A DNA stretch of 64,000 bases from Escherichia coli (GCF_003991155.1 NZ_CP031293.1), one strand, 5' to 3'. Counted from the stretch's first letter, positions 4,162 to 45,450 are shown. Made by a program: numbers and translations. The notes: generated by a model not told the origin, from the letters alone.

Positions 4162-4177
4162 TGTTAGTATTCTAACA
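4162..4177. promoter_or_regulatory. DeoR operator (O2, deoP2-proximal), near-palindrome TGTTAGTATTCTAACA
   Basis: 16-bp palindrome about 45 bp upstream of the deoC start; exactly 599 bp from the second copy at 4761. Confidence 0.75.
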
Positions 4178-4374
4178 TCTACTTCGCAACACACTTCGAT
4201 GTACATCACAATTAAGGAAATCTACTTACAAGTTTGCATCACTGTAATGCGATCTGGTTCAAATAATTCACTTTCAAATGAATGCGTCAGTGGTGGCAAA
4301 CGCATCAGGATCAAAGTGAACATCACGAAACTTCTTACAATGGCGCATCACCTTCGGCATAAAAGGAAAAGAAG

Positions 4375-7656: not shown

Positions 7657-8726
7657 GCCAGATCCTCATTGTTAAATGTCGGGTCGTTCGCCTGCGGAGC
7701 GTCGCTCACTTCGGCAACCAGCGTATCGTTGGCGACTGGCGCAGGCGGAATAACGATCGACTCCGGCGTCACCACCGGCACCAGATGGCGGCTCAGCGGC
7801 GCTTTTTCAGTCAATAATTTACCGACCGTTGCCAGAAAATAACGCCCACATAAACGCCCAAGTTTATAGTCTTCACGCAGCGCCGGAATCCGACTGCCGA
7901 GCGCAATACTATGCAATGGCTTCGGCGGATAAATTTCGAATATCCGCAGCTGGCCCGGTGGTTTCTCAATAAATTGCTGAATCTCACGATAGCTGGTTTC
8001 ATGATGCTGCACCAGATTGACCAGCGGCTGCAGGCTACTGTCACCCAGCCAGCGTTCCATGCGTTTGAACCACTGTGGCGTGTAGTACATTTGTGACGGC
8101 ACAGTGCGTATGACGACCAACGTTTTTGCTCCCTGCCTTGCCGCCTCTTTAACCGGGATCGCATCACTGATCCCACCATCCAGGTAGTTAATACCTTCCA
8201 GCGACACTCCGCTACGATAAAAGCCAGGTATCGCACTGGAGGCGCGAATCACATCCAGCCAGTTTTGTTTAGTTGGCAAAAAGTAATTCGGCGCATAGTC
8301 ATCCTGACGACAGGCGCACATATAAAACGATTTGCCGCTGTCAAATAACCGCGCTGCGGTATCCATTTGCAATGGCATCTGGCTTGCGGTGGCCTCCACC
8401 AGCCAGTCGAGATCGATAAGATTTCCTCCACGGACAAAGCGCAATGGATCGAAAAATTCGCGTTTTGTGGTATAGCGCATGATGACTTTGCGCGCGTAAC
8501 CGGGCTGATTGCAGATATACGCCGAGAGGTTCTGCGCCCCGGCAGATGTGCCGAGATAAAGATCGAAAGGATTAAACTGCGCGCGCATAAACTCATCCAG
8601 CACGCCAGCCGTGAAAATTCCACGCTGTCCGCCGCCTTCGCACACCAGAGCAATCCGTCCAGGCTGGAACGGCCTCAGCGACAACGGCGCAATATTACCA
8701 AGCGTTACAGGTATTCGCTGCCCCAC
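7653..8726 (-). CDS. yjjU: Patatin-like phospholipase family protein YjjU
   Basis: ORF 7653..8762; GxGxxG (CEGGGQRG) and GTSAG patatin motifs; likely GTG start at 8726 giving 357 aa. Confidence 0.85.
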   Translation of the reverse strand: MGQRIPVTLGNIAPLSLRPFQPGRIALVCEGGGQRGIFTAGVLDEFMRAQFNPFDLYLGTSAGAQNLSAYICNQPGYARKVIMRYTTKREFFDPLRFVRGGNLIDLDWLVEATASQMPLQMDTAARLFDSGKSFYMCACRQDDYAPNYFLPTKQNWLDVIRASSAIPGFYRSGVSLEGINYLDGGISDAIPVKEAARQGAKTLVVIRTVPSQMYYTPQWFKRMERWLGDSSLQPLVNLVQHHETSYREIQQFIEKPPGQLRIFEIYPPKPLHSIALGSRIPALREDYKLGRLCGRYFLATVGKLLTEKAPLSRHLVPVVTPESIVIPPAPVANDTLVAEVSDAPQANDPTFNNEDLA

Positions 8727-8847
8727 CTCTGCCTTCCTGTTTTTGTTGTGAAAGAAGGACAAAGTAACGCAATTTATTATTCGCTAAAACCGCAAAAGCC
8801 AGTCCGTTGGACTGGCTTTGGATAAAATTTTCTTAATGGTCTGAAAT

Positions 8848-9009
8848 CTAGGGTCGTTTTCGGCCCATGAACAAACTCACCAGGAACAGAATAATCCCGA
8901 CGACAAAGACAATTTTAGCTGCGCCTGCAGCAGTACCGGCCAGACCACCAAACCCAAGTGCGGCGGCGATTAACGCGATAACCAGAAATATGATGCCCCA
9001 ACGAAACAT
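8848..9009 (-). CDS. ytjA: Small membrane protein YtjA (DUF1328)
   Basis: ORF 8848..9039; internal start gives a 53-aa hydrophobic product [22 protein letters not shown]... Confidence 0.8.
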
Positions 9010-9135
9010 AAGCGTCTCCTTTACCATAGTTAATGTCACCGCTTGATATGAGCGTGAAAATCACTCAATGCGATATTTTTAGTGTGGTGCACATCGCGCC
9101 TCCCGACAAAGTTCGGGAGGACGAATTACGACGAA

Positions 9136-9741
9136 TTACTTAGTTTTCAGATCATTTTTAACGCTTTTCACACCATCTACCGCTTTGGCGATACTTTCAG
9201 CACGGTCACTTTGTGCCTGAGAATCTACGGTACCGGAGAGCTGAACCACACCATCGGTGGTTTCAACTTTCACTTTACGTGAAGGGACAATGTCATCCGC
9301 CAGCAGTTTGGCTTTGATTTCACTGGTGGTGGCGGTGTCACCCGCGTAGCCCTTCACAGAGCCTTCTTTAGCGTCGCGAACGTGCAGTTTGTCGCTGACA
9401 GAGGTCACCCCTTCAACGCCTTTCGCCACTTTCACTGCTTCTTCGGCCTGGGCCTGGCTTTCAACGAAACCGCTCAGGGTCACGACTTTTTGATCGGTTT
9501 TGACAGAGATATCGGTGCTCTTGATGTTGTCATGATCCACCAGGGCCGCCTTCACTTTCGCGGTGATGGCGCTGTCATCCATGAAATTACCGACTTTATT
9601 CATAGAGCTATCGACTTTTTGCCCTGCGCTTTCATTGGTAGTCTGCGCGTTGTTTTCTGCGTAGGCAGAGCCGGTCGCGACGGCAGAGGTCAACATTACA
9701 GCCAGCAGAGTTTTCGAAATCTTCAGTCTTGTCATAGTCAT
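9136..9741 (-). CDS. osmY: Osmotically inducible periplasmic protein OsmY (two BON domains)
   Basis: ORF 9136..9819; internal start [28 protein letters not shown] gives a signal peptide and a 201-aa product. Confidence 0.9.
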
Positions 9742-10133
9742 CGATTTATTCCTGTATGTTTGCTCGTAATTTGAGCCTGGCAACACGAGGTTGCATTGCT
9801 GAATAGGGAGAGACTTCACCCTCTACAGAAGTCAATGGTCGCCATCACAAAAGCGATGGGTGATGAATAACGACCATTACAGCCTCTGAATCAGTTATTA
9901 ATATCGGTAGAATGACAATCGACGGCTTTAGATACTGATATCTACGCATTGAACGGTATTTAACGCCGTCAGAAATGTCATTACTTTGTTAAATATAGAT
10001 CACAATTTTGAAACCGCTCGGGATATCCCCTAAAACATAAGCAAAAGTGAATGTTTTAAGAACATTCCGTAAGCGGCTAATAAGGAAGGGAAATTGACAG
10101 GGCGCAGCGGCTACCGCGCCCTGGAGGCTAGAA

Positions 10134-11723
10134 TTAATGCTCGCGGGTCTGGTGGAACTGAACGTCCGGATAACGTTCCTGCGCCAGGCGCAGATTGACC
10201 ATGCTGGTAGCGATGTAAGCGAGGTTATCGCCGCCATCAAGCGCCAGTTGGCTTTCGTTCTTACGCTTGAACTCTTCGAATTTCTTCGCGTCCGCACATT
10301 CTACCCAGCGGGCGGTGGCAACGTTGACTGACTCATACACTGCTTCAACGTTGTATTCGCTCTTCAGGCGCGCTACCACCACATCAAACTGCAGCACACC
10401 AACCGCGCCAACGATCAAATCGTTGTTGGAGATCGGACGGAACACCTGCACCGCGCCCTCTTCGGAAAGCTGTACCAGCCCTTTGAGCAGCTGTTTTTGC
10501 TTCAGCGGATCTTTCAGGCGGATACGACGGAACAGTTCTGGCGCGAAGTTCGGAATACCGGTGAACTTCATCATCTCACCCTGGGTAAAGGTGTCGCCGA
10601 TCTGAATGGTGCCGTGGTTGTGCAGACCAAGGATATCGCCAGGATACGCTTCTTCAACGTGCGAACGGTCACCCGCCATAAAGGTCAGCGCGTCGGAGAT
10701 CACCACATCTTTCGCAGTACGCACCTGGCGCAGCTTCATGCCTTTTTCATATTTACCGGACACCACACGCATAAACGCCACGCGGTCGCGGTGTTTCGGG
10801 TCCATGTTGGCCTGAATTTTAAATACGAAGCCGGTAAATTTGTCTTCGCTCGCCTCTACGGTACGGGTATCAGTCTGACGCGGCATCGGCGCTGGGGCCC
10901 ACTCCACCAGGCCATCCAGCATATGATCAACGCCGAAGTTACCCAGCGCAGTACCAAAGAACACTGGAGTAATTTCGCCCGCAAGGAACAATTCTTTGTC
11001 GAACTCGTTAGACGCGCCTTTCACCAGTTCCAGTTCGTCACGCAGCTGCTGTGCCAGATCTTCACCAACCGCAGCGTCGAGATCCGGGTTATTCAGCCCT
11101 TTAACAATGCGGACTTCCTGAATGGTGTGGCCTTTACCGCTCTGATAGAGATAGGTTTCATCTTTATAAAGGTGGTAAACGCCTTTAAACAGCTTGCCGC
11201 AGCCAATCGGCCAGGTGATCGGTGCGCAGCCGATTTTCAGCTCGTTCTCAACTTCATCGAGCAGTTCCATCGGGTCGCGGATATCACGGTCAAGTTTGTT
11301 CATAAAGGTGAGGATCGGCGTATCGCGCAGACGGGTAACTTCCATCAGCTTACGGGTACGATCTTCAACACCTTTTGCAGCGTCGATAACCATCAGGCAG
11401 CAGTCCACCGCAGTCAGGGTACGATAGGTATCTTCCGAGAAGTCTTCGTGCCCCGGGGTGTCGAGCAGGTTAACCAGGCAATCGTGATACGGAAACTGCA
11501 TCACAGAAGTAGTAATGGAGATCCCACGCTGCTTTTCCATCTCCATCCAGTCCGACTTAGCGTGCTGGTTGGAACCACGGCCTTTTACTGTACCGGCGGT
11601 CTGAATGGCCTGTCCGAACAGCAGCACCTTCTCGGTGATGGTAGTCTTACCGGCGTCCGGGTGAGAAATAATGGCAAAAGTGCGGCGCTTCGCCACCTCT
11701 TGCAAATAAGGAGACAACGTCAT
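10134..11723 (-). CDS. prfC: Peptide chain release factor 3 (GTPase)
   Basis: ORF 10134..11750; translational GTPase motifs [12 protein letters not shown] and DTPGH; internal start [14 protein letters not shown] gives 529 aa. Confidence 0.93.
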
Positions 11724-11813
11724 AATTCTTTCTTCTTGAGTAAGCGGCATCGCGCCGCGCTTGTTGAAAACGAAAAATTGCGGCTATTTTACCCATCAAC
11801 GGGGGGGAGGCAA

Positions 11814-29662: not shown

Positions 29663-30568
29663 ATGGTACAAAGTATCAATCTTCTTCGAACCAGTGATAC
29701 TCCTATGGCTTATAGCATCGATATCATCTCCTGCATTACCGAACGGTTTATGGCGTTAACAGCCACTGAAAAGCGTATCGCACAATTTATTCTTGATGAC
29801 GTCTCTGCCGCAGTAGAGTTGCCAATTGCTGAGCTGGCACGGTTAACGCAAACCAGTCAGGCGTCGGTGACGCGTTTTGCCCGTGCACTGGGGTGCAAAG
29901 ATGTCCGCGAGTTGAAAGTCAAACTGGCGCAGTCACTGGCTGTCGGGCAGCGGTTTATTCTCGATGTACCGGATCTTGACGGTGTTCAGGGGATCTACGA
30001 AGCGATTATTAGCGTGCTGGAGACGCATCGTCGTTCGCTGGATATGAATGCCATCAGCCAGGCTGTAAGCTGGTTAAGTCAGGCGCGGCAAATTCTTGCG
30101 TTAGGAACTGGCGGCGGTTCCACTATCTGTTCACAGGAGATTCAGTACCGTTTATTCCGTCTGGGGCTACCGGTGGTCAGTCAGAATGATGCCCTGATGA
30201 TGAGAATGATGTGCTCGGCAGTCATGCCGCAGGATGTGGTGATTGTGCTTTCGCTGGGCGGTTATACACCGGAAATCATCGAAAGTGCGGCAATCGCCCG
30301 TCAGTATGGCGCGCGTGTTATTGCCATTACGCCAGCACAAACACCGCTGGCGGAACAGGTGGATCTGGTATTGCCGTTACTGGTTCAGGAAAGTGATTAC
30401 ATCTTTAAGCCCACCCCTTCCCGCTACGCGATGTTAGCCATGGTCGATGTACTGGCAACAGAACTGGCAATGGCAAATAAAGCGCAGGCGAAAGATCGCC
30501 TGCGGCGGATAAAACTCGTGTTAGACAGCCACCGTGGGGGCGCTAACCGCCAGCCACTTGGCGATTAG
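29663..30568 (+). CDS. RpiR/MurR-family transcriptional regulator (HTH plus SIS sugar-phosphate-binding domain)
   Basis: 301-aa ORF (start may be internal, about 29705); HTH region TEKRIAQFILDD...ELARLTQTSQASVTRFARALG; SIS-like motif LGTGGGS. Confidence 0.75.
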   Translation: MVQSINLLRTSDTPMAYSIDIISCITERFMALTATEKRIAQFILDDVSAAVELPIAELARLTQTSQASVTRFARALGCKDVRELKVKLAQSLAVGQRFILDVPDLDGVQGIYEAIISVLETHRRSLDMNAISQAVSWLSQARQILALGTGGGSTICSQEIQYRLFRLGLPVVSQNDALMMRMMCSAVMPQDVVIVLSLGGYTPEIIESAAIARQYGARVIAITPAQTPLAEQVDLVLPLLVQESDYIFKPTPSRYAMLAMVDVLATELAMANKAQAKDRLRRIKLVLDSHRGGANRQPLGD

Positions 30569-30577
30569 CATTGTCGG

Positions 30578-32047
30578 TTATGCTTCTTCAGGTTTGGTGA
30601 TCACGACACTCTGGTTTTCACGCTCATTGGTGATAATAGCCAAAGCTTCTTCCCGGCTGACCTGACTTGCTGGCGTTACCAACGTCACCAGTACGCCAGC
30701 GACCAGGCTGCCCAGCACTGACGGAATACACGGGTTACCCCAGTAAGCCAGCCAGTCGGCATTCATCAGCACCACAATTGACATCACCATACCGCTCACT
30801 AACGCCGCCAGCGCGCCCTGCCAGTTAAAGCGTAGCCAGAAGCGACCGAGAATCGAGCAGATAAACAGCCCGGACATCAGCATCGAAATCATTTTGGTAA
30901 TGTAGCTGATGATGTCATTAGAGGTCAGAGCAAAGACCAGCGCCAGGCCAATAACAAAGGTCAACATCCAGCGTGAGTAAGTAATGGCCTTGTCCTCCGG
31001 CGGCATTCTGCCGGTAATCATGGTGTAGACGTCGCGCATCATAATCGCCACCGCCGCGATGGCATCGGAGCTGGCAGAAGACATGGTGGCTGAAAGCCCG
31101 GCAATCAGCACCACCAGCCCAAGAATGGCAGGTAAGAAACTGGTCGCGAACAAGAAGGCGTAGTTGCTGTTTTCCAGATTTGGGTTCATGGTGAACGCCG
31201 CCATGCCGATAATGGCAGGCAAAATCGAGAAGAACAGATATAACACCCCAGTAATAACAAACGAACGGCGTACAGAGGGAACATCTTTACCCGAGTAAAT
31301 ACGCTGGCGATAAGACGGTGTGGCCAGTACGCCGACACCAATAACCAGCGCCAGCGAAAGCGCAGGTAGAACGCCCATTTTATCAATCGCAAACAGGCTC
31401 ATCGCTTTTGGGTCCATCGCCTGTTCAATCGCACTCCAGCCGCCAACGTGAACAACGGCGAGAATAGCCATCAATATAAAGCCAAAGAACAGAATTAAGG
31501 CCTGAATGGTGTCTGTCCACACTACCGCCGAATAACCGCCGATAATAACGTAAATCGCAAAAGCTAAGGCGATAATTAATTTTGCTACAGTAAGATCAAT
31601 ACCTGTTGCCCAGGCAAGATACATACTGCCACCTAATATATGCGCCCCCAGCCAGCCAATAGAGGCAATAAATATCATCAGGCCGACAATATTTTTAATT
31701 AAATGACTCCCGCCAGTATAATAAGATATTTCTTCACTCATGGTCATAAAACGTAATTTACGTACCGGTGCAAACAGCCACGCCACCAGTAATATACCTA
31801 CGGCCCCACCGACGCCATAAAGCATTCCGGCCCAGCCATTGCTGTAGCCAAAGCCCACGGCGCCCATACTGGAACCCGTGCCAACCATCGTGGCAACGGT
31901 TGAGCCCAGCGTCAGAAACAGCGGCAACGAACGCCCGCCCAGCAGAAAATCTTCTCCGCTTTTCTGATTACGAGACACAAACCAACCAAGCCAAATCATG
32001 GCGATGGCATAAATAATAAAGCCGACTAAAAAGATATGACTGTTCAT
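30578..32047 (-). CDS. Sodium:solute symporter (SSS) family transporter
   Basis: 489 aa, highly hydrophobic, SSS-like N-terminus (GGRSLPLFLTLGSTVATMVGTGSSMG). Confidence 0.75.
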   Translation of the reverse strand: MNSHIFLVGFIIYAIAMIWLGWFVSRNQKSGEDFLLGGRSLPLFLTLGSTVATMVGTGSSMGAVGFGYSNGWAGMLYGVGGAVGILLVAWLFAPVRKLRFMTMSEEISYYTGGSHLIKNIVGLMIFIASIGWLGAHILGGSMYLAWATGIDLTVAKLIIALAFAIYVIIGGYSAVVWTDTIQALILFFGFILMAILAVVHVGGWSAIEQAMDPKAMSLFAIDKMGVLPALSLALVIGVGVLATPSYRQRIYSGKDVPSVRRSFVITGVLYLFFSILPAIIGMAAFTMNPNLENSNYAFLFATSFLPAILGLVVLIAGLSATMSSASSDAIAAVAIMMRDVYTMITGRMPPEDKAITYSRWMLTFVIGLALVFALTSNDIISYITKMISMLMSGLFICSILGRFWLRFNWQGALAALVSGMVMSIVVLMNADWLAYWGNPCIPSVLGSLVAGVLVTLVTPASQVSREEALAIITNERENQSVVITKPEEA

Positions 32048-32149
32048 AATTCACATCCTGCCAGTAGAGAGAGAATAAAGTAAGAGTTCCCGGAGTGCTG
32101 AATGTATTCAGCACTCAATTGCGGTCTATTTTTTTAATTCTTAAATTTA

Positions 32150-32539
32150 TTAGCGGGTCGCGTTATAACAGGTCACATCGACTTCAACTTTACAATCGAC
32201 AACCAGATCAGCTACACAACAAATACGTGCAGGCGGATTCTCGCCAAAAAATTCTCTGAATACTTTATTAAATGACTGGAAATAGCGGGCGTCGGTCAGG
32301 ATCACTTTCACGTGAACCACATCCGCCAGGCTATAACCGGCTTCAGTCATGATGTCGACACAGTTTTGGATCGCCAGTCGTGACTGTTCAACGATACCGC
32401 CTTCTACCACTTCACCGTTTTTCATGGGGGTTTGCCCGGAGACGTACAGCCAGCCGCCCGCCTCAACCGCCCTGGCAAACGGCAAATGCTGCCCGCCAGT
32501 GCCTGTTCCACCTTCCGTACCGTAACGTTTAATACTCAT
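32150..32539 (-). CDS. RidA/YjgF-family reactive-intermediate (enamine/imine) deaminase
   Basis: About 129 aa; pattern ...VSGQTP...AGYSLADVVHVKVILTD...PAR... typical of RidA family. Confidence 0.7.
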   Translation of the reverse strand: MSIKRYGTEGGTGTGGQHLPFARAVEAGGWLYVSGQTPMKNGEVVEGGIVEQSRLAIQNCVDIMTEAGYSLADVVHVKVILTDARYFQSFNKVFREFFGENPPARICCVADLVVDCKVEVDVTCYNATR

Positions 32540-32548
32540 ATTCACTCC

Positions 32549-34000
32549 TTAATGTGAGGTCTGGCGGCGCAGGAAGCGTCCCGCACGGCCTGTAATATGT
32601 TTATCGGGACCATAGCTCATAACGCCGTTCACCATCACCGCCTCAATGCCATCTGCCGGGCGTTTGGGATCAGAAAAGCTGGCAACATCACGAATGGTTT
32701 GTGGATCGAACAACACCAGGTCCGCAAAATAGCCGACTTTCACCAGCCCACGCTGAGGCAGACGAAAACGGCTGGCAGAAAGCCCGGTCATTTTGTGGAT
32801 AGCCGTGGTCAGTGGGAATAAGCCTTCATCACGGCAATAGTGACCCAGCACGCGAGGGAAAGCGCCCCATAAACGCGGATGCGGCATGGGATCATTGGGC
32901 AGTCCGTCAGAGCCAATCATACTGACCGGATAACTCAACACTCGGCGGACGTCGCGCTCGTCCATGTTGTAATAGATAGCCCCGGCAGGCATCAGCAACT
33001 TCGCGGCCTCCAGCATACTCATCTGCCAGTCGATGGCGATTTGCGCCAGTGTTTTCCCGGCCTGCTGCGGATGTGTTTGTGACCAGGTGATCACAATATC
33101 GAATTCGTCGGTGACTTGTTTGAGATCCAGCGTTGAAGAGCTGGCTGAGTAAGGGTAGACATCGCAGCCAATTTCCTGGTGTTGACGCATTTGGTCAAAA
33201 AAGGCCAACGTTTCTTTTGTCCGCCCCCAGTTTTTCGCCCCGGCGCATTTATGGTGGGAAACCACGACAGGCACTTTGCCATGACGCCCAATACGAAACG
33301 CCTCATCCAGGGCATCGAGAATCGGTTCAAATTCAGAACGCAGATGGGTGGTATAAACGCCCTTCTCACCGGCTAATTCTTCCGCCAGCGCCATGACTTC
33401 TTCGGTAGTCGCCTGAAATGCCGTTGCATAGGCCAGCCCGGAACTTAACCCCAGCGCCCCCTGACTCAACGCCAGACGTAAGTCGGCACGCATAGCGGCA
33501 ATTTCATCCACCGTCGCCGGGCGAAACAGGTCGTCCATATGGTTATTACGCAGCGCCGTATGACCAATCAGCGTGCCAACGTTCAGTGACGGCCTGGCTG
33601 CTTCCACTGCCTGGGCATAGCTTTCAACGGTAGGATAAATAAAGTGCTCTGCTTCCCCCAACAGATTCATCGGGTCAGGAACTTCACCTTTCATTTTCGC
33701 CGACGCCGCACTAATCCCGCAGTTACCGACAATCACCGTAGTGATCCCCTGGCTGATCTTTGGCAGATATTCCGGGATGCGAATAACGTTGATATCGTCA
33801 TGGGTATGAACGTCGATAAACCCTGGTGCCAGCACCCGCCCTTCCCCGTCAATGACCTGCTGCGCCGTAACGTTAAGCGCAGGGGCAATATCGACAATCC
33901 GATCACCTGTTATTGCCACGTCACCGCGAAATTCAGGGCCGCCGCTACCGTCGATAACGGTCACATTTTTGATTAACCAGTCAACCTGCATGTTCGTCAC
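32549..34000 (-). CDS. N-acyl-D-amino-acid deacylase (D-aminoacylase), amidohydrolase superfamily
   Basis: 483 aa; N-terminal IKNVTVIDGSG...APGFIDVHTHDD metal-binding motif characteristic of D-aminoacylases. Confidence 0.75.
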   Translation of the reverse strand: MTNMQVDWLIKNVTVIDGSGGPEFRGDVAITGDRIVDIAPALNVTAQQVIDGEGRVLAPGFIDVHTHDDINVIRIPEYLPKISQGITTVIVGNCGISAASAKMKGEVPDPMNLLGEAEHFIYPTVESYAQAVEAARPSLNVGTLIGHTALRNNHMDDLFRPATVDEIAAMRADLRLALSQGALGLSSGLAYATAFQATTEEVMALAEELAGEKGVYTTHLRSEFEPILDALDEAFRIGRHGKVPVVVSHHKCAGAKNWGRTKETLAFFDQMRQHQEIGCDVYPYSASSSTLDLKQVTDEFDIVITWSQTHPQQAGKTLAQIAIDWQMSMLEAAKLLMPAGAIYYNMDERDVRRVLSYPVSMIGSDGLPNDPMPHPRLWGAFPRVLGHYCRDEGLFPLTTAIHKMTGLSASRFRLPQRGLVKVGYFADLVLFDPQTIRDVASFSDPKRPADGIEAVMVNGVMSYGPDKHITGRAGRFLRRQTSH

Positions 34001-34191
34001 TCCATTTCTGCAATGGTGACAAGTTAACCATTTACAAGGACGAAAAACAGTGGAAAACTACGCAAAACCCAGATGATTTTATGATACTTTTATTCATAAA
34101 TAATAAGATAAATAAACTAAATATTTATATTTCATTTAGTTACAAATGATACTCACATCCGATACGGTGAAAAACTTAAAAGGTAAATGTT

Positions 34192-35412
34192 ATGAAATAC
34201 CACTCAGAACCTCTGGTTCCCCATAAATCTGCCCTGATGCAAATGCCCGCAAATCTCCTTGCCGAAGATGTCTGTTTACCTGCCGCGATCATTAAAAAGC
34301 AGGCCCTGGAGAACAACATTACGTGGATGCAACGCTACGCTGACGCGCGCGGCGTTTCACTGGCACCGCACGGTAAAACCACCATGACGCCGTGGATTTT
34401 TCAGGCGCAGCAGGCGGCTGGTGCCTGGGCAATAGGTGTCGGTAGCGCATGGCAGGCTGGTGCGGCAATGGCGAGCGGTATTCAGCGAGTGCTGATGGTT
34501 AACCAGCTGGTCGGCAAGGCGAATATGCAGTTGATTGCCCAGTTGCAACGACATTACCCGACGGTCGATTTTATCTGCTGTATCGACAGCATTGAGAACG
34601 CCCGCGCTTTGTCTGCCTTTTTTGCCAGTCAGCAACAGACACTGAACGTGATGATTGAGTTGGGTGTCCCCGGCGGGCGCTGTGGTTGCCGCTCAAGGGA
34701 TGCCGCACTGACACTGGCTAAACAGGCAGCCCAATTACCGGGGTTACGCCTGCGGGGGCTTGAGTTATATGAAGGCGTTTTACACGGTGACGCTCCACAA
34801 CCGCAGGTAGAAGCTCTGCTGCGGGATGCCGCACAACTGGCCTGTGATATGGCAAGTCTGGTTGATGGCGAGTTTATTCTCACCGGAGCAGGCACGGTCT
34901 GGTATGACGTGGTGTGCAATATCTGGCTGGCGGCAGAAAAGCCTGATAACTGCCGCATTGTTATTCGCCCTGGCTGCTACATCACTCACGACACCGGGAT
35001 CTACGACGCGGCACAACAACAGTTGCTTGCCCGTGATCCTGTGGCCTGCGATCTGGCAGGCGATCTCACATCTGCGCTGGAACTGGTCGCCATGGTGCAA
35101 TCGGTGCCGGAAGCTGATCGTGCGGTGGTAAATTTTGGTAAGCGTGATTGCGCCTTCGACGCCGGACTGCCGCAACCAGTCGCCCACTACCGCAACGGCA
35201 AATCACTGGCATTTGATCCACAGGCGATTCGCAGTACAGGTATTATGGATCAGCACTGCATGTTGCAACTGTCAGCTAATAGCGACGTGCAAGTGGGGGA
35301 TATTCTGGTGTTTGGCACATCGCATCCGTGCCTGACCTTCGACAAATGGAAAACGTTGTTATTGACTGATGACGACTACAACGTACTGGCAGAATTAGAC
35401 ACTCTCTTCTAA
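34192..35412 (+). CDS. DSD1-family PLP-dependent enzyme (alanine-racemase-fold D-serine dehydratase / D-threonine aldolase-like)
   Basis: 406 aa; putative PLP-lysine motif LAPHGKTTM near the N-terminus; divergent from the deacylase gene. Confidence 0.65.
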   Translation: MKYHSEPLVPHKSALMQMPANLLAEDVCLPAAIIKKQALENNITWMQRYADARGVSLAPHGKTTMTPWIFQAQQAAGAWAIGVGSAWQAGAAMASGIQRVLMVNQLVGKANMQLIAQLQRHYPTVDFICCIDSIENARALSAFFASQQQTLNVMIELGVPGGRCGCRSRDAALTLAKQAAQLPGLRLRGLELYEGVLHGDAPQPQVEALLRDAAQLACDMASLVDGEFILTGAGTVWYDVVCNIWLAAEKPDNCRIVIRPGCYITHDTGIYDAAQQQLLARDPVACDLAGDLTSALELVAMVQSVPEADRAVVNFGKRDCAFDAGLPQPVAHYRNGKSLAFDPQAIRSTGIMDQHCMLQLSANSDVQVGDILVFGTSHPCLTFDKWKTLLLTDDDYNVLAELDTLF

Positions 35413-37879: not shown

Positions 37880-38083
37880 ATGTTTGGTAACTTAGGACAG
37901 GCAAAAAAATATCTCGGCCAGGCGGCGAAGATGTTGATTGGCATTCCAGACTACGACAACTACGTCGAGCATATGAAGACCAACCATCCCGACAAGCCGT
38001 ACATGAGCTATGAAGAATTCTTCCGCGAACGCCAGAACGCACGCTACGGCGGCGATGGTAAAGGCGGTATGCGCTGTTGTTAA
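37880..38083 (+). CDS. yjiX: Small protein YjiX (DUF466)
   Basis: 67 aa [33 protein letters not shown]...; directly follows btsT. Confidence 0.85.
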
Positions 38084-38093
38084 CGGAGAGAGC

Positions 38094-39050
38094 ATGAACC
38101 CGATTGCAGTTACCCTACTCACCGGTTTTTTAGGCGCGGGCAAAACTACCCTGCTGCGCCATATTCTTAACGAACAGCACGGCTACAAGATTGCCGTGAT
38201 TGAAAACGAATTCGGCGAAGTCTCCGTTGATGATCAACTGATTGGCGACCGCGCCACGCAGATCAAAACGCTGACCAACGGCTGCATCTGCTGTTCGCGC
38301 TCCAACGAGCTGGAAGACGCACTACTCGACCTGCTGGATAATCTCGACAAGGGCAATATTCAGTTCGACCGTCTGGTCATTGAATGCACCGGCATGGCCG
38401 ATCCCGGCCCGATTATTCAGACCTTTTTCTCCCATGAGATTTTATGCCAGCGCTACCTGCTGGACGGCGTGATTGCGCTGGTGGATGCGGTACATGCCGA
38501 TGAGCAGATGAACCAGTTCACCATCGCCCAGTCACAGGTTGGCTACGCCGACCGTATTCTGCTGACTAAAACCGACGTCGCAGGCGAAGCAGAAAAACTG
38601 CGTGAACGCCTGGCGCGCATCAACGCCCGTGCACCGATCTACACCGTCACCCACGGCGACATCGACCTGGGCCTGCTGTTCAACACCAACGGTTTTATGC
38701 TGGAAGAGAACGTCGTCAGCACCAAACCGCGTTTCCACTTTATCGCGGACAAACAAAACGATATTTCGTCGATTGTGGTGGAACTGGATTACCCGGTAGA
38801 TATCAGCGAAGTTTCCCGCGTGATGGAAAACCTGCTGCTGGAGTCGGCGGATAAACTACTGCGTTACAAAGGGATGCTATGGATTGACGGCGAACCTAAT
38901 CGCCTGCTGTTCCAGGGCGTCCAACGCCTCTACAGCGCCGACTGGGACCGCCCGTGGGGCGATGAAACACCGCATAGCACAATGGTGTTTATCGGGATTC
39001 AGCTGCCGGAGGATGAGATTCGGGCGGCGTTTGCGGGGTTGAGGAAGTAA
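38094..39050 (+). CDS. yjiA: CobW/COG0523-family metal-chaperone GTPase YjiA
   Basis: ORF 38010..39050; product from MNPIAVTLLTGFLGAGKTTLL (P-loop) with CxCC motif GCICCS; 318 aa. Confidence 0.9.
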   Translation: MNPIAVTLLTGFLGAGKTTLLRHILNEQHGYKIAVIENEFGEVSVDDQLIGDRATQIKTLTNGCICCSRSNELEDALLDLLDNLDKGNIQFDRLVIECTGMADPGPIIQTFFSHEILCQRYLLDGVIALVDAVHADEQMNQFTIAQSQVGYADRILLTKTDVAGEAEKLRERLARINARAPIYTVTHGDIDLGLLFNTNGFMLEENVVSTKPRFHFIADKQNDISSIVVELDYPVDISEVSRVMENLLLESADKLLRYKGMLWIDGEPNRLLFQGVQRLYSADWDRPWGDETPHSTMVFIGIQLPEDEIRAAFAGLRK

Positions 39051-39061
39051 TTTTGGATGAT

Positions 39062-39092
39062 GGCCGCCATGTGGCGGCCTGAATTATTTTTT
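39062..39092. terminator. Bidirectional hairpin terminator between convergent yjiA and brnA
   Basis: Inverted repeat GGCCGCCA/TGGCGGCC followed by a T-run (TGAATTATTTTTT). Confidence 0.6.
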
Positions 39093-39386
39093 GTTCTGAT
39101 CGCGCAGCATCGCTTCACGTAAAATTGCGTTCAGGCGAGTTTGATAGCCTTTACCTGGTCGCTTCAACCATTCCATCACATCAGAATCAATACGCACCGA
39201 GGCCTGAGTTTTCAATGGCCGATAAAACTTACCGCGTTCTGCGTTAGACCATTGCTCATCGCTGGAAGGTGGGATATCACTGTAATCAATATCTTCGTCG
39301 GATTTATTCGCCAGCGCCTTCAGTTCGGCCTCATGCTGCACATCGAGTGTAGAGGAGGTCCCTCGTTTATGTTTAACCATGCTCAT
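39084..39386 (-). CDS. brnA: BrnA-like antitoxin (COG3514 / DUF4415 family)
   Basis: About 100 aa from an internal ATG of ORF 39084..39527; motifs IDYSDIP and VRIDSDVMEWLKRPGKGYQTRLNAILREAM typical of BrnA; start overlaps the upstream toxin gene. Confidence 0.75.
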   Translation of the reverse strand: MSMVKHKRGTSSTLDVQHEAELKALANKSDEDIDYSDIPPSSDEQWSNAERGKFYRPLKTQASVRIDSDVMEWLKRPGKGYQTRLNAILREAMLRDQNKK

Positions 39387-39687
39387 AGCGATTCCTCTCT
39401 TTACGATCTGCTTTTCGTGCACTGATGATTCGAATAATTTCATTTCCGCTTTCGAAACGGATGGTATGCGCAACCAGAATAACCACGATGCCGTAAACCA
39501 GGCCGATTGTCTGCCAGCGATACTCACCGTTTTCTATGCGTTCTTGCTGTGACAAATGTTGTGGATCATCAAACACTAACACCGCATCTTCAAAGCGGAT
39601 GCCATGTTTCACCCGATTACTTTTGGCCTTGTTTGCATCCCATTCAAACTCCATTGGCATAGTTGCCATCCCTAATTGTATATACAA
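39373..39687 (-). CDS. brnT: BrnT-like toxin (COG2929 ribonuclease, RelE-like fold)
   Basis: 104-aa ORF (true start may be internal); motifs EFEWDANKAKSNRVKHGIRFEDAVLVFDDP and IRIISARKA typical of BrnT; toxin-first order with 14-nt overlap onto brnA. Confidence 0.75.
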   Translation of the reverse strand: MYIQLGMATMPMEFEWDANKAKSNRVKHGIRFEDAVLVFDDPQHLSQQERIENGEYRWQTIGLVYGIVVILVAHTIRFESGNEIIRIISARKADRKERNRYEHG

Positions 39688-39856
39688 AAATGTATCTACA
39701 ATTATTCTGCAATTATAGCGTTGATGTTGGAAATAGCATCACGTTTTGGATAATCAACCATGAAATTGACAATGAGTGAGTTGGACTTGATTCATCCAAT
39801 AGAATTTCTCGCCTGACATGGCACACTAAACACCTCGCTGTCGTTAAGGGATTACC

Positions 39857-41023
39857 GTGAAAAACTACAAAGTCATTACCCCGCTTTTTCCTACCTATGC
39901 GCAAGTTAAGGCTATGATGAAAGCCGTCTCAGGCTATTCCCTGAAAGCGGTGCGCAATATGATTACTGCCATTCACGAGCAAACCGGTACGCCGCAAAAA
40001 CCCGTTGACTGGTCAGAACCCGACCTGTGGATCAGCGAGCGCTTAACGGGTGAAGATGCCGACATCGCCCGTCGTATTTGGGATACCGATAATCACATCT
40101 TGAACCCGCGCCACAGCTACGGCTGCTACTTATTCCTCAACTATCCCCAGTTTGAGCTGATGGAAAGCACACCAGATGATATCTGGCAGCCCACCTCGCG
40201 CGGGCAAAAATTCCTGCAAGATGACGAAAAAACGCTGCGTTCACTGGACGACCAGGAAGGCATTCTGCAACTGCTTGAGCTGCTGGCTGGCCGGGAAATG
40301 TCGCGCCGCGCCGATTTATTGCCGGAATGGCAGGCCTTTTTGCATCAGCATTCGAAATTCGCGTCAGCAAGTTCAGTGAAAAGCACGCTCTACTCCCGTC
40401 TCTATAACCTTATCGACCGTGACATGGTTAACCGTGAAGGCATGAGCTATCGCATCACCGATACCGGGCGCGCCTGGCTTGGAAAAGCGTTGCCAGCACG
40501 AAAAAGCGATCCGCGTAAAGAGCTGTTGGAAGCGGTAAAACGCTATAACGAACAGCAAAAAGAGCTGCTGCGCGAACAAATCAGCACGATGAACCCGTAC
40601 AAATTTGAGCAACTGGTTGGTCAATTACTGGAAGCAATGGGCTACGAGCAGGTCGAAGTGACCAAAGCCTCAGGCGACAAAGGTGTGGACGTGATTGGTC
40701 AGGTGCAGGTCGGCATCACCACTATTACCGAAGTGGTGCAGGTCAAAAGAATGCAGAACACTATCACTCGCCCGTATATCGACCAGTTGCGCGGGGCGTT
40801 GCCTTACCACAAAGCCATTCGCGGTACGCTCATCACCACCGGGAAATTTGCGGCGAAATGTGCAGAAGCGGCGCTCTTTCCGGGTGCCGCGCCCATTACG
40901 CTTATCGACGGCGATCGTTTACTGGAACTGTTAATCGAAAATAACGTCGGCATTCGCCGCAGCAATGCAGTGGAATTGCTGGATGTGGATTTGCAGTTGT
41001 TTGATGAGCTGGAGATGGATTAA
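39857..41023 (+). CDS. Mrr-family (type IV-like) restriction endonuclease with extended N-terminal region
   Basis: 388 aa with GTG start; C-terminal Mrr catalytic-like core (NPYKFEQLVGQLLEAMGY...SGDKGVDVIG...EVVQVKR) and an Mrr-like C-terminal tail; N-terminal half about 80 aa longer than K-12 Mrr (304 aa, from memory). Confidence 0.7.
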   Translation: MKNYKVITPLFPTYAQVKAMMKAVSGYSLKAVRNMITAIHEQTGTPQKPVDWSEPDLWISERLTGEDADIARRIWDTDNHILNPRHSYGCYLFLNYPQFELMESTPDDIWQPTSRGQKFLQDDEKTLRSLDDQEGILQLLELLAGREMSRRADLLPEWQAFLHQHSKFASASSVKSTLYSRLYNLIDRDMVNREGMSYRITDTGRAWLGKALPARKSDPRKELLEAVKRYNEQQKELLREQISTMNPYKFEQLVGQLLEAMGYEQVEVTKASGDKGVDVIGQVQVGITTITEVVQVKRMQNTITRPYIDQLRGALPYHKAIRGTLITTGKFAAKCAEAALFPGAAPITLIDGDRLLELLIENNVGIRRSNAVELLDVDLQLFDELEMD

Positions 41024-41067
41024 AGGGCGAAATCTGCCGCCTCTACCATTACAATACGGAGTTCATC

Positions 41068-41244
41068 GTGGTCAAAGCACCAACTAAAAAAGCCAAAGCA
41101 AAGAAAAGCTCTGAAGAAACATTATGTGATACCACAAACCAATTTCGTGGTAGCGTTGAGTCCTCCGAATACAAGCACGTGGTGTTAAGCCTCGTGCTCC
41201 AGAAACTCATCAGCGATAAGTTTGAAGCACGCCGCAAAAAATGA
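41068..41244 (+). pseudogene. Type I R-M methyltransferase HsdM N-terminal fragment (about 58 codons, then stop)
   Basis: GTG start with GGAG RBS; translation ...LCDTTNQFRGSVESSEYKHVVLSLVLQKLISDKFEARRKK* resembles the HsdM N-terminal domain; ends at TGA within an A6 tract. Confidence 0.5.
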
Positions 41245-41903
41245 TTGCCGAAGCGTTAAAAGCTGATGGGATGGAAGAAATTTATTTTTCTGGCGACAAA
41301 AAAGCGGAATCTATCGATATTTTTGACGAAGATTATCTGGCGCGAATTAACAAGATCAAACTTCCAGCAACGAAGATCCTGTTATTACAAAAATTACTGG
41401 AAAAAGCGATCAGCGAGTTCAGGAAAGTGAACCAGTTGCAAGGGATTAACTTCACCCGCCGCTTCCAGGCGATTATAGATCGTTATAATGAGCGGCGAGA
41501 AGATGATGTACTCAACGGTGAAGAATTCGATACATTCAGTCAGGAAATGATTGATATTATCTATGATATTAAAACCGAAATGGGCACCTGGGCCGATTTA
41601 GGCATTGATATTGAAGAAAAAGCCTTTTTCGACATTCTTGCTCATATGCGCGATAAATATCAGTTCACCTATGACGATGAAAAAATGCTGTCACTGGCAA
41701 AAGAGATGAAAAGCGTTGTTGACAACACATCGAAATATCCTGACTGGAGTAAACGCGATGATATTAAAGCGAAACTGAAAGTTGAACTTATTCTGCTTCT
41801 ACACAAGCATAAGTTCCCGCCAGTAGCGAATGATGATGTTTATATGGGTGTGCTGGCACAGGCAGAGAATTTTAAAGAACATCATATGAGTGCTTTAAAT
41901 TAA
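41241..41903 (+). pseudogene. Type I restriction enzyme HsdR C-terminal fragment (DUF3387-like)
   Basis: 220-aa ORF starting at the ATGA overlap with the upstream fragment; motifs LGIDIEEKAFFDIL and ...LLLHKHKFPP... resemble the HsdR C-terminal domain as I recall it; no helicase/nuclease core present. Confidence 0.5.
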
Positions 41904-41910
41904 TTATGAA

Positions 41911-41936
41911 GGCCGGATACACTTTGTTATCCGGCC
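41911..41936 (+). terminator. Stem-loop (possible terminator) after the hsdR remnant
   Basis: 9-bp perfect inverted repeat GGCCGGATA/TATCCGGCC with 8-nt loop; no strong T-run. Confidence 0.4.
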
Positions 41937-42022
41937 ATTCTGAATTAACGTTAATTTCTCTTCCAGATCTTTCCAGTAACGCTTTTATTATTTTCTATTT
42001 TTAGCTGGACTTTCCCTGTATT

Positions 42023-42042
42023 TACTGATGATATATCCAGGT
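42023..42042. promoter_or_regulatory. LexA (SOS) box in the symE promoter: TACTGATGATATATCCAGGT
   Basis: CTG-N10-CAG with AT-rich centre, about 75 bp upstream of the symE start codon. Confidence 0.7.
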
Positions 42043-42059
42043 ATTTAGCGCGGTGCGAA

Positions 42060-42136
42060 TGTGCGCCAACACACCCGCACCGCTCATCACAATCCCTATT
42101 TCACGAGAATAGTAATCATGACTGACACGCATTCTA
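42060..42136 (-). ncRNA. symR: Probable SymR antisense sRNA (antitoxin of SymE), approximate coordinates
   Basis: Inferred from the known cis-antisense arrangement over the symE RBS and start codon; boundaries not determined from sequence. Confidence 0.35.
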
Positions 42137-42456
42137 TTGCACAACCGTTCGAAGCAGAAGTCTCCCCGGCAAATAACCGTCAATTAACCGTGAGTTATGC
42201 GAGCCGCTACCCGGATTACAGCCGTATTCCCGCCATCACCCTGAAAGGTCAGTGGCTGGAAACCGCCGGTTTTGCTACCGGCACGGCGGTAGATGTCAAA
42301 GTGATGGAAGGCTGTATTGTCCTCACCGCCCAACCACCCGCCGCCGAAGAGAGCGAACTGATGCAGTCACTGCGCCAGGTGTGCAAGCTGTCGGCGCGTA
42401 AACAAAGGCAGGTGCAGGATTTTATTGGGGTGATTAGTAGCAAAACGCCACGCTAA
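42118..42456 (+). CDS. symE: SOS-induced toxin SymE (AbrB-fold RNA-cleaving protein)
   Basis: ORF 42061..42456; product [48 protein letters not shown]... matches SymE. Confidence 0.88.
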
Positions 42457-42497
42457 GTTTCTCTCCCCTTCCCCATACGGAAAGGGGAATTGCCCCC

Positions 42498-42662
42498 TCA
42501 CTCCACATCTTCCCTGCGTAACCCAATATCCCTCAACCGCTCATCACTCATCTGCTGTAACACCCGCCGGGCCTGCATTTGCCGCCGCCAACGCCTCACT
42601 GCCTGCCAGAGTTGCACAAGTCCAATAAACGGTGCTTTAGCTTTGTTTTCGTGAAATTCCAT
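42498..42662 (-). CDS. yjiS: Small DUF1127 protein YjiS (54 aa)
   Basis: Hand-translated reverse-strand ORF MEFHENKAKAPFIGLVQLWQAVRRWRRQMQARRVLQQMSDERLRDIGLRREDVE* with GGAGG RBS; below the 60-aa cutoff of the ORF track. Confidence 0.75.
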   Translation of the reverse strand: MEFHENKAKAPFIGLVQLWQAVRRWRRQMQARRVLQQMSDERLRDIGLRREDVE

Positions 42663-42838
42663 CTGCTGCCTCCTCATCTTTCAGAGGCTTCATCATCCGC
42701 CTTCTGGCAGCTCACAATACAGATGCAAATATTAGTTTTATTTAACATACAGACAGGTTAAAACAGCATCTGCATCCGGTTTTTTAGCCTCATCTGTACC
42801 GGTTTTTCCCTCTGTATGGTCCAAATAAGGAATACAGC

Positions 42839-44251
42839 ATGACGCGTTATCAACATCTGGCGACTCTGCTTGCCGAGCGGATTGAGCAAGGGCTGTATCG
42901 TCACGGGGAGAAATTGCCGTCGGTGCGCAGCTTGAGTCAGGAGCACGGCGTCAGTATCAGCACCGTGCAGCAGGCGTACCAGACGCTGGAGACGATGAAG
43001 CTCATCACTCCGCAGCCGCGTTCGGGTTATTTTGTCGCACAACGGAAAGCCCAGCCGCCAGTACCGCCGATGACGCGTCCGGTGCAGCGCCCGGTGGAAA
43101 TTACCCAGTGGGATCAGGTGCTGGATATGCTGGAGGCGCATAGCGACAGTTCCATTGTTCCGTTAAGTAAAAGCACGCCGGATGTCGAAACGCCCAGCCT
43201 GAAACCGCTGTGGCGGGAGCTAAGCCGGGTGGTGCAGCATAATCTGCAAACCGTTCTCGGTTATGACTTGTTAGCCGGTCAGCGAGTGTTGCGAGAGCAG
43301 ATTGCCCGCCTGATGCTCGACAGCGGCTCGGTGGTCACCGCCGATGACATCATCATTACTAGCGGCTGCCATAACTCGATGTCGCTAGCGTTAATGGCGG
43401 TGTGTAAACCGGGCGATATTGTCGCGGTCGAATCCCCCTGTTATTACGGTTCGATGCAGATGCTGCGCGGCATGGGCGTGAAAGTGATTGAAATCCCCAC
43501 CGATCCAGAAACAGGCATCAGCGTTGAAGCGCTGGAACTGGCGCTGGAGCAGTGGCCGATTAAAGGCATCATTCTGGTGCCAAACTGTAATAATCCGCTG
43601 GGATTTATTATGCCGGACGCGCGCAAACGGGCCGTTCTCTCTCTCGCTCAGCGTCATGATATTGTGATTTTTGAAGATGATGTCTACGGCGAACTGGCAA
43701 CGGAGTATCCGCGCCCGCGGACCATTCATTCCTGGGATATCGACGGGCGAGTGCTGTTGTGCAGCTCGTTCAGTAAAAGTATTGCTCCAGGCCTGCGCGT
43801 GGGTTGGGTCGCACCGGGGCGTTATCACGATAAACTGATGCATATGAAATACGCCATCAGCAGCTTTAATGTGCCGTCCACGCAAATGGCGGCGGCAACG
43901 TTTGTGCTGGAAGGTCACTATCATCGCCATATCCGGCGGATGCGGCAGATCTATCAGCGCAATTTGGCGCTTTATACCTGCTGGATACGGGAATATTTTC
44001 CCTGCGAAATCTGTATTACGCGCCCGAAAGGCGGATTTTTACTGTGGATAGAATTGCCTGAACAGGTCGATATGGTTTGCGTTGCGCGGCAGCTATACCG
44101 CATAAAAATCCAGGTGGCGGCAGGCTCGATTTTCTCAGCTTCCGGCAAATACCGTAATTGTCTGCGCATCAACTGCGCTTTGCCGCTCAGCGAAACCTAT
44201 CGCGAAGCACTGAAGCAAATTGGCGAAGCCGTGTATCGGGCAATGGAATGA
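42839..44251 (+). CDS. yjiR: MocR/GabR-type transcriptional regulator (GntR HTH fused to PLP aminotransferase-like domain)
   Basis: 470 aa; N-terminal GntR HTH (LPSVRSLSQEHGVSISTVQQAYQTLE) and large aminotransferase class I-like C-terminal domain. Confidence 0.85.
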   Translation: MTRYQHLATLLAERIEQGLYRHGEKLPSVRSLSQEHGVSISTVQQAYQTLETMKLITPQPRSGYFVAQRKAQPPVPPMTRPVQRPVEITQWDQVLDMLEAHSDSSIVPLSKSTPDVETPSLKPLWRELSRVVQHNLQTVLGYDLLAGQRVLREQIARLMLDSGSVVTADDIIITSGCHNSMSLALMAVCKPGDIVAVESPCYYGSMQMLRGMGVKVIEIPTDPETGISVEALELALEQWPIKGIILVPNCNNPLGFIMPDARKRAVLSLAQRHDIVIFEDDVYGELATEYPRPRTIHSWDIDGRVLLCSSFSKSIAPGLRVGWVAPGRYHDKLMHMKYAISSFNVPSTQMAAATFVLEGHYHRHIRRMRQIYQRNLALYTCWIREYFPCEICITRPKGGFLLWIELPEQVDMVCVARQLYRIKIQVAAGSIFSASGKYRNCLRINCALPLSETYREALKQIGEAVYRAME

Positions 44252-44493: not shown

Positions 44494-45450
44494 TTAGTAC
44501 TCGATCCATGGATCGCGCTTGCTTTCAGGCAAGGGCTGATCTAATGCCTGCATTTGCTCTGCCGAAAGTCCGGTATATCGTTGTATCCATTCAGGATCCG
44601 CCCCATTCTGCAACAACAATCGGAGGAGGCTCTTTTCCCCTTCTTCTTTCCCTTCTTTCCTCCCCCTCTCCCTTCCCAACAGCCATCCATCATTATGAAT
44701 TCGCTCTGCAATCGTCATTATTCGCTCCCTGTGTTGTGGCATTCGACGGATAAGTTCGCTGATAAACTCATTAAAACGCGCTTCATCGCCAGTCAGTAAA
44801 ATGTAATTTAACAGCGCGGTTATCTGGCTGTCATTAGCGCACCCTGTAACCAGTAATACTGCCAGTTGATCAATAAGCCCCATTAGATCGCGCTGGCGAA
44901 TATGCTTTTGGATCAACTCCAGCAGGGCGACTCTGCGATGCTGCACAATCTCGTCGTCTGGCACGACAGTGACATCCACCAGCGGGAACGCTGCGGTATA
45001 AAGCTTCCGTGCGGTAGCCGGGTCGGCAAATTCATCCAGCCAGCACAAAGACCAGGGGTAAGGACTACGGCTACCGTGATAAAACAGCATCGGGATGACC
45101 AGCGGTAGCGGCCGGCGTTTATCATGCTCGATATGGCGCTGCATCACCGCCATGGAATATCGCATCAGGCGAAAGGCCATATGGATATCCTCGCGGCTCT
45201 GATGTTCAATCACCACATAAATATAGCCATCTCCTTCGCGGGTCTTTACCGACCACAGAATATCGGAATGTAGCGCCCGCAATTTTTCATCGACAAAGCT
45301 GGCGTATTCCAGTTTTAAGCTGTCGAGATCGCACAGTTCACGTAAATCTTTGGGTAAGTGGATCTCCATAAAATCCCGCGCGGTGTCAGGGTGGGTGAGA
45401 AAAGATTTAAATAATGCGTCATGCGGCGTGCTGGTCGTGAAGTTTGTCAT
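44494..45450 (-). CDS. rpnD: Rpn-family recombination-promoting nuclease (PD-(D/E)XK, transposase_31-like); intact ORF
   Basis: 318 aa; N-terminal HDALFKSFL motif typical of Rpn/YhgA-like proteins; E/G/K-rich low-complexity C-terminal linker. Confidence 0.75.

Follow-up and report, generated by a model that had tools for sequence, protein, structure and literature searches.

The immigration control region (ICR, 'hotspot 36') of Escherichia coli, which spans from yjiA to yjiS/yjiN, has long been studied as a site of replaceable cassettes. According to a 2025 review, the type IA, IB and ID restriction-modification systems of the ICR are accompanied by distinct type IV genes belonging to three families, and the three toxin-antitoxin systems of the region are brnAT, symE/symR and rpn (PMC12707154). 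The cassette of K-12 combines a type IA system with mrr and mcrBC (mrr-hsdRMS[IA]-symE-mcrBC), and that of CFT073 combines a type IB system of the EcoAI family with DUF262 and GmrSD (DUF262-hsdRMS[IB]-symE-GmrSD). Here we analyze the ICR of another E. coli strain, an interval of 3,067 bp (39051–42117) within a 64,000 nt stretch of its genome (GCF_003991155.1 NZ_CP031293.1), which is called the window below and to which all coordinates refer. The interval contains the toxin-antitoxin genes brnT and brnA, a gene for a nuclease of 388 amino acids (aa), and remnants of the type I genes hsdM and hsdR. Its layout was derived from a list of open reading frames (ORFs) and from the RefSeq/PGAP annotation of E. 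coli 2016C-3878, which is identical across the whole interval.

The cassette occupies the same site as those of K-12 and CFT073 (yjiA to yjiS/yjiR) and shares with them the logic of a type I system combined with a type IV-like nuclease and a toxin-antitoxin system. That the gene content between yjiA and symE is unlike that of K-12 had been noted in an original prediction for this DNA, in agreement with the ORF list and the K-12 layout, which was checked in the genome (yjiA-mrr-hsdR-hsdM-hsdS-symE-mcrBC-yjiV-yjiT-yjiS). The K-12 order given there (mrr-hsdR-hsdM-hsdS, with mcrBC beyond symE) is correct, mcrBC, yjiT and yjiV are indeed absent before yjiS/yjiR according to the ORF list and the RefSeq annotation, and the decayed type I remnant corresponds to fragments of hsdM and hsdR that are recognized by PADLOC and PGAP. 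The site is also, as had been stated, a known restriction hotspot, namely the ICR.

The locus is very probably a decayed standard ICR cassette that consists of independent modules. The ancestral cassette would have had the organization yjiA / brnA-brnT / Mrr_cat nuclease-hsdM-hsdS-hsdR / symR/symE / yjiS. In the lineage of the window, a deletion of 5,435 bp occurred between the copies of a microhomology in hsdM and hsdR, the loss of one base in an A-run then broke the fused hsdM-hsdR frame, and three intact, independent modules were left, namely brnTA, a stand-alone nuclease, and symE/symR. BrnT would be a ribonuclease toxin neutralized by BrnA, the two forming a self-contained type II operon. 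The targets of the nuclease would be DNAs whose foreign modifications protect them from the type I partner, so that its role in the parent cassette would resemble that of mrr and mcrBC beside EcoKI in K-12. We consider this account, taken as a whole, to be likely. Its mechanistic part, according to which the nuclease is a type IV-like (modification-dependent) restriction enzyme, has about an even chance of being correct.

The deletion is evident from a comparison with the locus of E. coli Nissle 1917. In blastn, the window matched the Nissle locus in two blocks with 96% identity (38000–41251 and 41239–43000, corresponding to positions 1307–4578 and 10001–11763 of the Nissle locus), and the sequence missing in the window is flanked by a 10 bp microhomology, AAATGATTGC(C/A)GA, that is common to the intact hsdM and hsdR genes. 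The deleted span extends from codon 59 of hsdM to codon 867 of hsdR and comprises hsdS in its entirety together with the greater part of both hsdM and hsdR. What remains of HsdM are residues 1–58 of the 539 residues of the Nissle protein. The HsdR remnant consists of residues 868–1087 of 1,087 (the last 220 codons), is 96.8% identical to Nissle HsdR (blastp), and matches the PADLOC REase_I model PDLC03040 at profile positions 820–1027 of 1,029 (E = 1.7e-84). Recombination at the microhomology alone would have left the fusion in frame. However, the fused frame is broken because the A-run contains six A's in the window and seven in Nissle, and the frameshift creates a stop after codon 58. PGAP calls both remnants pseudogenes. 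With hsdM and hsdR reduced to fragments and no hsdS, the type I component is dead and, as judged from the sequence, type I restriction or modification from this locus is impossible. In strains that carry this allele, the site no longer provides a type I barrier, which is relevant to their transformability.

The population frequencies of the modules were determined among 5,426 complete E. coli genomes. The 3,067 bp interval was found (counted at ≥80% coverage) in 75 genomes, and the 30 that were listed were all 100% identical. The nuclease gene is present in 880 genomes (16%), including Nissle 1917, and each of these 880 genomes also contains the junction between brnT and the nuclease gene, whereas brnTA is present in 2,112 genomes. 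In about 1,100 genomes, the match to brnT and the adjoining spacer ends at position 39843, which is 14 bp short of the start of the nuclease gene. In the three of these genomes that were examined, including an isolate of sequence type 131 (ST131), an IS1 remnant lies past this breakpoint and is followed directly by mdtM. This IS1-associated deletion removes the nuclease gene, hsdMSR, symE, yjiS, yjiR and rpn, so that brnTA is the sole gene set of the ICR that remains. Altogether, the IS1-deleted form is the commonest state of the brnTA-bearing cassette, most of the 880 nuclease-bearing genomes have the undeleted parent form, and the form found in the window is the rarest of the three states of one well-populated cassette. 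The parent order brnA-brnT-nuclease-hsdM-hsdS-hsdR-symE is intact in Nissle, Salmonella and E. albertii, and it is present without brnTA in Klebsiella. The window thus documents another route of ICR decay, a microhomology deletion of hsd, beside the far commoner IS1 deletion.

These frequencies bear on the suggestion of the original prediction that the combination of toxin-antitoxin pair and nuclease is an uncharacterised defence arrangement. The suggestion was not supported. The segment is present in 75 complete genomes and brnT beside the nuclease gene in 880, all of them annotated by PGAP, the nuclease is a member of the PADLOC family PDC-S02, brnAT is treated in the 2025 review mentioned above, and the modules are separable. 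Thus, the possibility that the prediction itself had named as speaking against it, that such an arrangement is widespread and consists of known, annotated systems, largely describes what was found. The segment is common, annotated and catalogued, and the activity of nucleases of the PDC-S02 type is a matter for 880 E. coli genomes and numerous other species rather than for the window in particular.

The BrnT/BrnA type II toxin-antitoxin system was first described in Brucella abortus. The E. coli copy resembles it in that both Pfam domains are present, the toxin gene is first, and the ORFs overlap. BrnT matches BrnT_toxin (PF04365; E = 5.8e-24) with residues 7–88, which cover all 77 positions of the model (1–77), BrnA matches BrnA_antitoxin (PF14384; E = 6.5e-17), and the two genes lie on the same strand with an overlap of 14 nt. 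Thus, a toxin domain and an adjacent, co-operonic antitoxin domain are both present. Neither of the two predicted toxin-antitoxin proteins matched any PADLOC model. The original prediction was right about the presence of the pair, but its designation as 'convergent' was not correct, because brnT and brnA run in the same direction, and the convergence is that of their operon with yjiA. A palindrome with 14 nt arms is located 13–44 nt upstream of the brnT start, and it is a candidate operator at which brnTA is probably autoregulated. The spacer between brnT and the divergently oriented nuclease gene is A + T-rich and has a length of 196 bp. The palindrome was also considered as a sign of shared regulation of brnTA and the nuclease gene. 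This was rejected since the palindrome belongs to the brnT end of the spacer, is separated from the nuclease start by about 150 bp, and is retained in the IS1 variants without the nuclease.

The nuclease consists of a predicted N-terminal winged-helix part (about residues 10–210), a helical linker, and a C-terminal Mrr_cat domain with a PD-QxK motif (Pfam, E = 3.8e-29, residues 243–359). Over residues 1–386 it matches the PDC-S02 model PDLC04796 (profile positions 1–383 of 390, E = 2.1e-207, 686.7 bits). PDC-S02 is a computationally defined single-gene candidate for phage defence, and the nuclease matches it over its full length. Residues D278, E292, Q295 and K297 do not vary among 20 homologues that range from E. 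coli to Chloroflexi, and the catalytic residues align with the VQAKR motif of EcoKMrr, with 31% identity across the last 173 residues. Thus, the protein has the catalytic domain and the catalytic residues that are expected of a type IV enzyme. EcoKMrr shares with the nuclease the C-terminal Mrr_cat PD-QxK domain, an N-terminal winged-helix DNA-binding part, which is predicted in the nuclease, and a site beside a type I system next to yjiA. However, EcoKMrr has 304 aa, and the N-terminal 215 residues of the 388 aa nuclease have no similarity to Mrr and apparently form two winged-helix units. The designation 'Mrr-family' used previously therefore applies to the Mrr_cat domain, but the likeness to K-12 Mrr does not extend beyond it.

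In the AlphaFold (AF2) model of the nuclease, the mean predicted local distance difference test score (pLDDT) is 79.6 and exceeds 90 for residues 10–210, which are folded into helix-plus-hairpin units. Comparisons of this model yielded fold matches to winged-helix proteins, FokI, BpuJI and MspJI, and the only match among PDB chains searched by sequence was a weak one, to the catalytic domain of MspJI (E = 0.019). The alleles of the window and Nissle differ by 37 synonymous and 6 non-synonymous changes, and the resulting ratio of non-synonymous to synonymous substitution rates (dN/dS) of 0.04 indicates that the nuclease is under strong purifying selection. The family, for which 902 homologues were found, is strongly conserved over the full length, with 52% identity between the E. 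coli and Chloroflexi proteins. This abundant nuclease family recurs beside type I systems.

To describe the neighborhoods across species, 68 species-level loci with a nuclease homologue were searched for BrnT, BrnA, HsdM, HsdS and HsdR. A type I gene was regarded as adjacent when it was located at most 700 bp from the nuclease gene, and the 42 loci that extended for 5 kb or more on each side of it were counted as having full flanks. An adjacent type I gene was found in 25 of the 68 loci, and in 19 of the 42 loci with full flanks. These neighbors represent at least three type I families, with HsdR proteins that carry either EcoEI_R_C or T1RH-like_C and HsdM proteins of 480, 539 or 786 aa, and at least five gene orders. 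The order nuclease-hsdM-hsdS-hsdR is found in the enteric ICR and also in Mixta. In Serratia the nuclease gene is convergent with hsdR-hsdS-hsdM, and in Kushneria the order is hsdR-hsdS-TIR-hsdM-nuclease. The arrangement hsdR-nuclease-hsdM-hsdS, in which the nuclease gene is on the same strand as the type I operon and the gaps are 24–128 nt, was found in nine species that belong to several orders of proteobacteria, among them Pseudomonas, Thiocystis, Polaromonas and Limnobacter. The nuclease gene occupies about positions 8001–9130 in those of the nine loci that are of full length. The linkage to type I systems is not part of the single-gene definition of PDC-S02. A literature search on Mrr_cat together with type I systems yielded nothing relevant. 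Further homologues are located after a BREX cluster in Modicisalibacter and among housekeeping genes in a Chloroflexi locus. brnTA was present in 3 of the 68 loci, each of which represents the yjiA site of an Escherichia or Citrobacter. In Kushneria indalinina, the TIR-domain gene (positions 5520–6482 of the locus) is situated between hsdS and hsdM.

The type IV-like reading of the nuclease is suggested by the combination of a predicted winged-helix reader with an intact PD-QxK nuclease, the lack of a methyltransferase of its own, and its seat beside modification-based systems. Stand-alone loci have no adjacent methyltransferase gene, and the only methyltransferase gene of the window is the 58-codon fragment. 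The same pairing of type I and type IV genes as in the nuclease cassette is found at this site in K-12 (IA with mrr and mcrBC) and in CFT073 (IB with DUF262/GmrSD). Several points weigh against the proposed account. The N-terminal 215 residues of the nuclease gave no significant Pfam match, including none to Mrr_N. The catalytic domain is modelled with moderate confidence by AF2 (pLDDT 44–60 at residues 300–350), and Pfam also matches the nuclease to NA-iREase1, a family named as inactive (E = 1.7e-13). Both the substrate preference of the nuclease and any anti-phage effect are inferred. The universal adjacency of brnT in the 880 nuclease-bearing E. coli genomes would allow a lineage-specific functional link between the two modules, and the assignment of the type I neighbor in Nissle to family ID (StySBLI/KpnAI/EcoR9I) was reached by elimination and from the statement in the review. 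Finally, a randomly chosen representative of PDC-S02 that had been cloned in E. coli B conferred no protection against T4, T5 and T7 (bioRxiv 10.1101/2024.09.26.614923). PDC-S02 has several hidden Markov models, however, and the tested representative may be a distant relative of the nuclease analyzed here.

Could brnTA and the divergent nuclease gene form one composite defence system, in which, for example, the toxin-antitoxin pair controls or backs up the nuclease? The two are divergent neighbors with a common spacer, they are adjacent in all nuclease-bearing E. coli genomes, and they are likewise paired in E. albertii, Citrobacter sedlakii, C. youngae and Salmonella. However, every co-occurrence is at the single yjiA locus in close relatives and therefore reflects shared cassette ancestry. 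Only 136–610 bp, without brnTA, separate the nuclease gene from yjiA in Citrobacter sp. FP75, Enterobacter sp. Bisph1 and Pluralibacter, and the approximately 1.6 kb between the two genes in Yokenella also do not contain brnTA. Because brnTA occurs alone in the approximately 1,100 genomes in which the nuclease gene has been deleted, and 65 of the 68 species-level nuclease loci are without brnTA, the modules are separable in both directions. The position of the palindrome near brnT and the lack of any PADLOC match for BrnT and BrnA also speak against a joint system, which we regard as highly improbable. brnTA and the nuclease should not be counted as one system. The possibility that the 388 aa protein is inactive, either because its nuclease fold has degenerated and it serves in DNA binding or regulation or because its gene is on the way to decay after the loss of its partner, agrees with the match to the 'inactive restriction endonuclease' family, with the negative phage test of the PDC-S02 representative, and with the statement in a review that no activity in vitro has been reported even for EcoKMrr. 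It is nevertheless very unlikely given that the Mrr_cat match is much stronger, the four catalytic residues are invariant from E. coli to Chloroflexi, the ORF is of full length with a low dN/dS, and the sequence is 100% conserved across the listed deletion-bearing genomes.

A dedicated type I accessory is a further option for the nuclease. It would be coupled to the Hsd complex as PrrC is to EcoPrrI, and the copy in the window would have been orphaned by the deletion. PrrC is an anticodon nuclease that EcoPrrI keeps latent and that becomes free upon inhibition of the type I enzyme by a phage. It is encoded in the type IC hsd operon, and relatives of the nuclease are similarly embedded between hsdR and hsdM in the nine species mentioned above, but not in the window. 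The recurrent adjacency to type I genes of several families and in several orders also agrees with such a coupling, and we estimate that chance adjacency would be well under 1%, because type I systems are present in about half of the genomes, with roughly one per genome, according to a review. However, PrrC is an RNA anticodon nuclease, whereas the nuclease of the window is a predicted PD-QxK DNA nuclease that also occurs alone and survives the loss of hsd. Type I genes are missing from the vicinity of the nuclease gene in about half of the loci with full flanks (e.g., those of Chloroflexi and Modicisalibacter), and this frequent solitary occurrence, together with the intact nuclease in 75 E. 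coli genomes without hsd, argues against an obligate dependence on Hsd. In addition, plain co-location of a type IV gene with a modification-based system, as that of mrr with EcoKI or of BrxU with BREX, explains the linkage without physical coupling. Taken together, an accessory role in this sense is unlikely, and it is decidedly unlikely that the family is a functionally coupled fourth component of type I systems, for example a second-line nuclease that is released or activated once the type I enzyme has been disabled by an anti-restriction protein of a phage. If this were the case, the window would represent a natural 'uncoupled' state that would be useful for studying the nuclease alone. 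Still another type of enzyme is suggested by the top Foldseek matches, FokI (E = 6.8e-4) and the BpuJI recognition domain, namely a type IIS-like enzyme whose tandem winged-helix part reads a specific unmodified sequence and whose methyltransferase is encoded elsewhere in the genome. These matches are weak, with template modelling (TM) scores of at most 0.31, no methyltransferase gene is consistently adjacent, and the nuclease is highly conserved while the neighboring HsdS proteins vary (23–53% identity), so that no matched modification specificity is apparent. Such an enzyme is extremely improbable.

The type I system of the parent cassette belongs to neither of the families found in K-12 and CFT073. 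HsdM of the Nissle type has only 24% identity to its IA counterpart of K-12 and 27% to its IB counterpart of CFT073, the HsdR subunits can barely be aligned, and its ICR homologues in Klebsiella are 91–94% identical. By elimination, and in accordance with the IA/IB/ID statement of the review, the Nissle-type hsd genes represent a third family, most likely ID. An assignment to family IB, which had been assumed from the EcoAO83I/CFT073 paper, was rejected in view of these identities and of the different cassette of CFT073.

Table. Features of the ICR in the window and of its flanking genes.
Feature	Position	Strand	Basis and remarks
yjiA	38094-39050	+	ORF and RefSeq; conserved left anchor of the immigration control region
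G+C-rich hairpin GGCCGCCATGTGGCGGCC, putative shared terminator	39062..39079		Consensus scan, pattern match only; between convergent yjiA and brnA
brnA antitoxin gene, 100 aa	39084-39386	-	Pfam BrnA_antitoxin; PGAP 'BrnA antitoxin family protein'
brnT toxin gene, 95 aa	39373-39660	-	Pfam BrnT_toxin; PGAP 'BrnT family toxin'
Palindrome, 14-nt arms TAATTGTATATACA-AAAA-TGTATCTACAATTA	39673..39704		Inverted repeat, 93% complementary; candidate brnTA operator
Nuclease gene, 388 aa, intact	39857-41023	+	PADLOC PDC-S02, Pfam Mrr_cat; PGAP 'restriction endonuclease'
hsdM' remnant (N-terminal pseudogene)	41068-41244	+	PADLOC MTase_I, PGAP pseudogene, Nissle comparison
Deletion junction with microhomology AAATGATTGC(C/A)GA	41239..41251		blastn against Nissle and sequence inspection
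'hsdR remnant (C-terminal pseudogene)	PGAP ~41235-41903, ORF 41241..41903	+	PADLOC REase_I, blastp
symR antisense antitoxin RNA	42047-42123	-	Rfam RF01809
symE	42118-42456	+	NCBIfam NF010128; right end of the variable segment
yjiS	42498-42662	-	ORF and RefSeq
yjiR	42839-44251	+	ORF and RefSeq

At the right end of the segment, the symE ORF and the antisense symR RNA over its 5' end constitute a SymE/SymR type I toxin-antitoxin system. symR scored 88.9 bits (gathering score 61) with Rfam RF01809, and SymE scored 221.8 bits (cut-off 132) with NCBIfam NF010128. SymE was the sole protein that scored with NCBIfam, in which BrnT, BrnA and the nuclease had no match. A promoter scan of the interval revealed 5 sites, no excess over the 5.7 sites expected from shuffled sequence.

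Several additional observations concern the hsd remnants. The HsdR remnant has its own ATG, so that a free C-terminal HsdR domain of 220 aa is translatable in principle, and it also has a weak match to the PADLOC model PDC-S15 (E = 1.3e-6). Another deletion variant was found in E. coli B-1109, in which the nuclease gene breaks off after 683 nt and directly adjoins hsdR. What E. coli 2A, GN03139 and BL12 retain of the hsdR remnant segment is no more than approximately its final 258 bp (41693–41950). In Enterobacteriaceae bacterium RIT693, short fragments that resemble HsdM and HsdR (positions 9270–9817 of the locus) come after a nuclease homologue that is not located at the yjiA site. This was considered as the result of the same event as in the window, which was rejected, since the locus is a different one and the nucleotide similarity is confined to the nuclease gene. 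It seems that a type I system has decayed there independently, next to a nuclease that is intact.

Two further features of the window lie outside of the cassette. Between tsr and btsT, an approximately 5.7 kb metabolic islet (29705–35412) contains genes for a MurR/RpiR regulator, a sodium:solute symporter, a RidA-family protein, an N-acyl-D-amino-acid deacylase and an amino acid deaminase, whereas tsr directly adjoins btsT in K-12, Nissle, CFT073 and the ST131 isolate. An rpn-family gene at the rpnD/yjiQ position (44494–45450, minus strand) is an intact ORF of 318 aa in the window as well as in Nissle, whereas rpnD of K-12 is annotated as a pseudogene.

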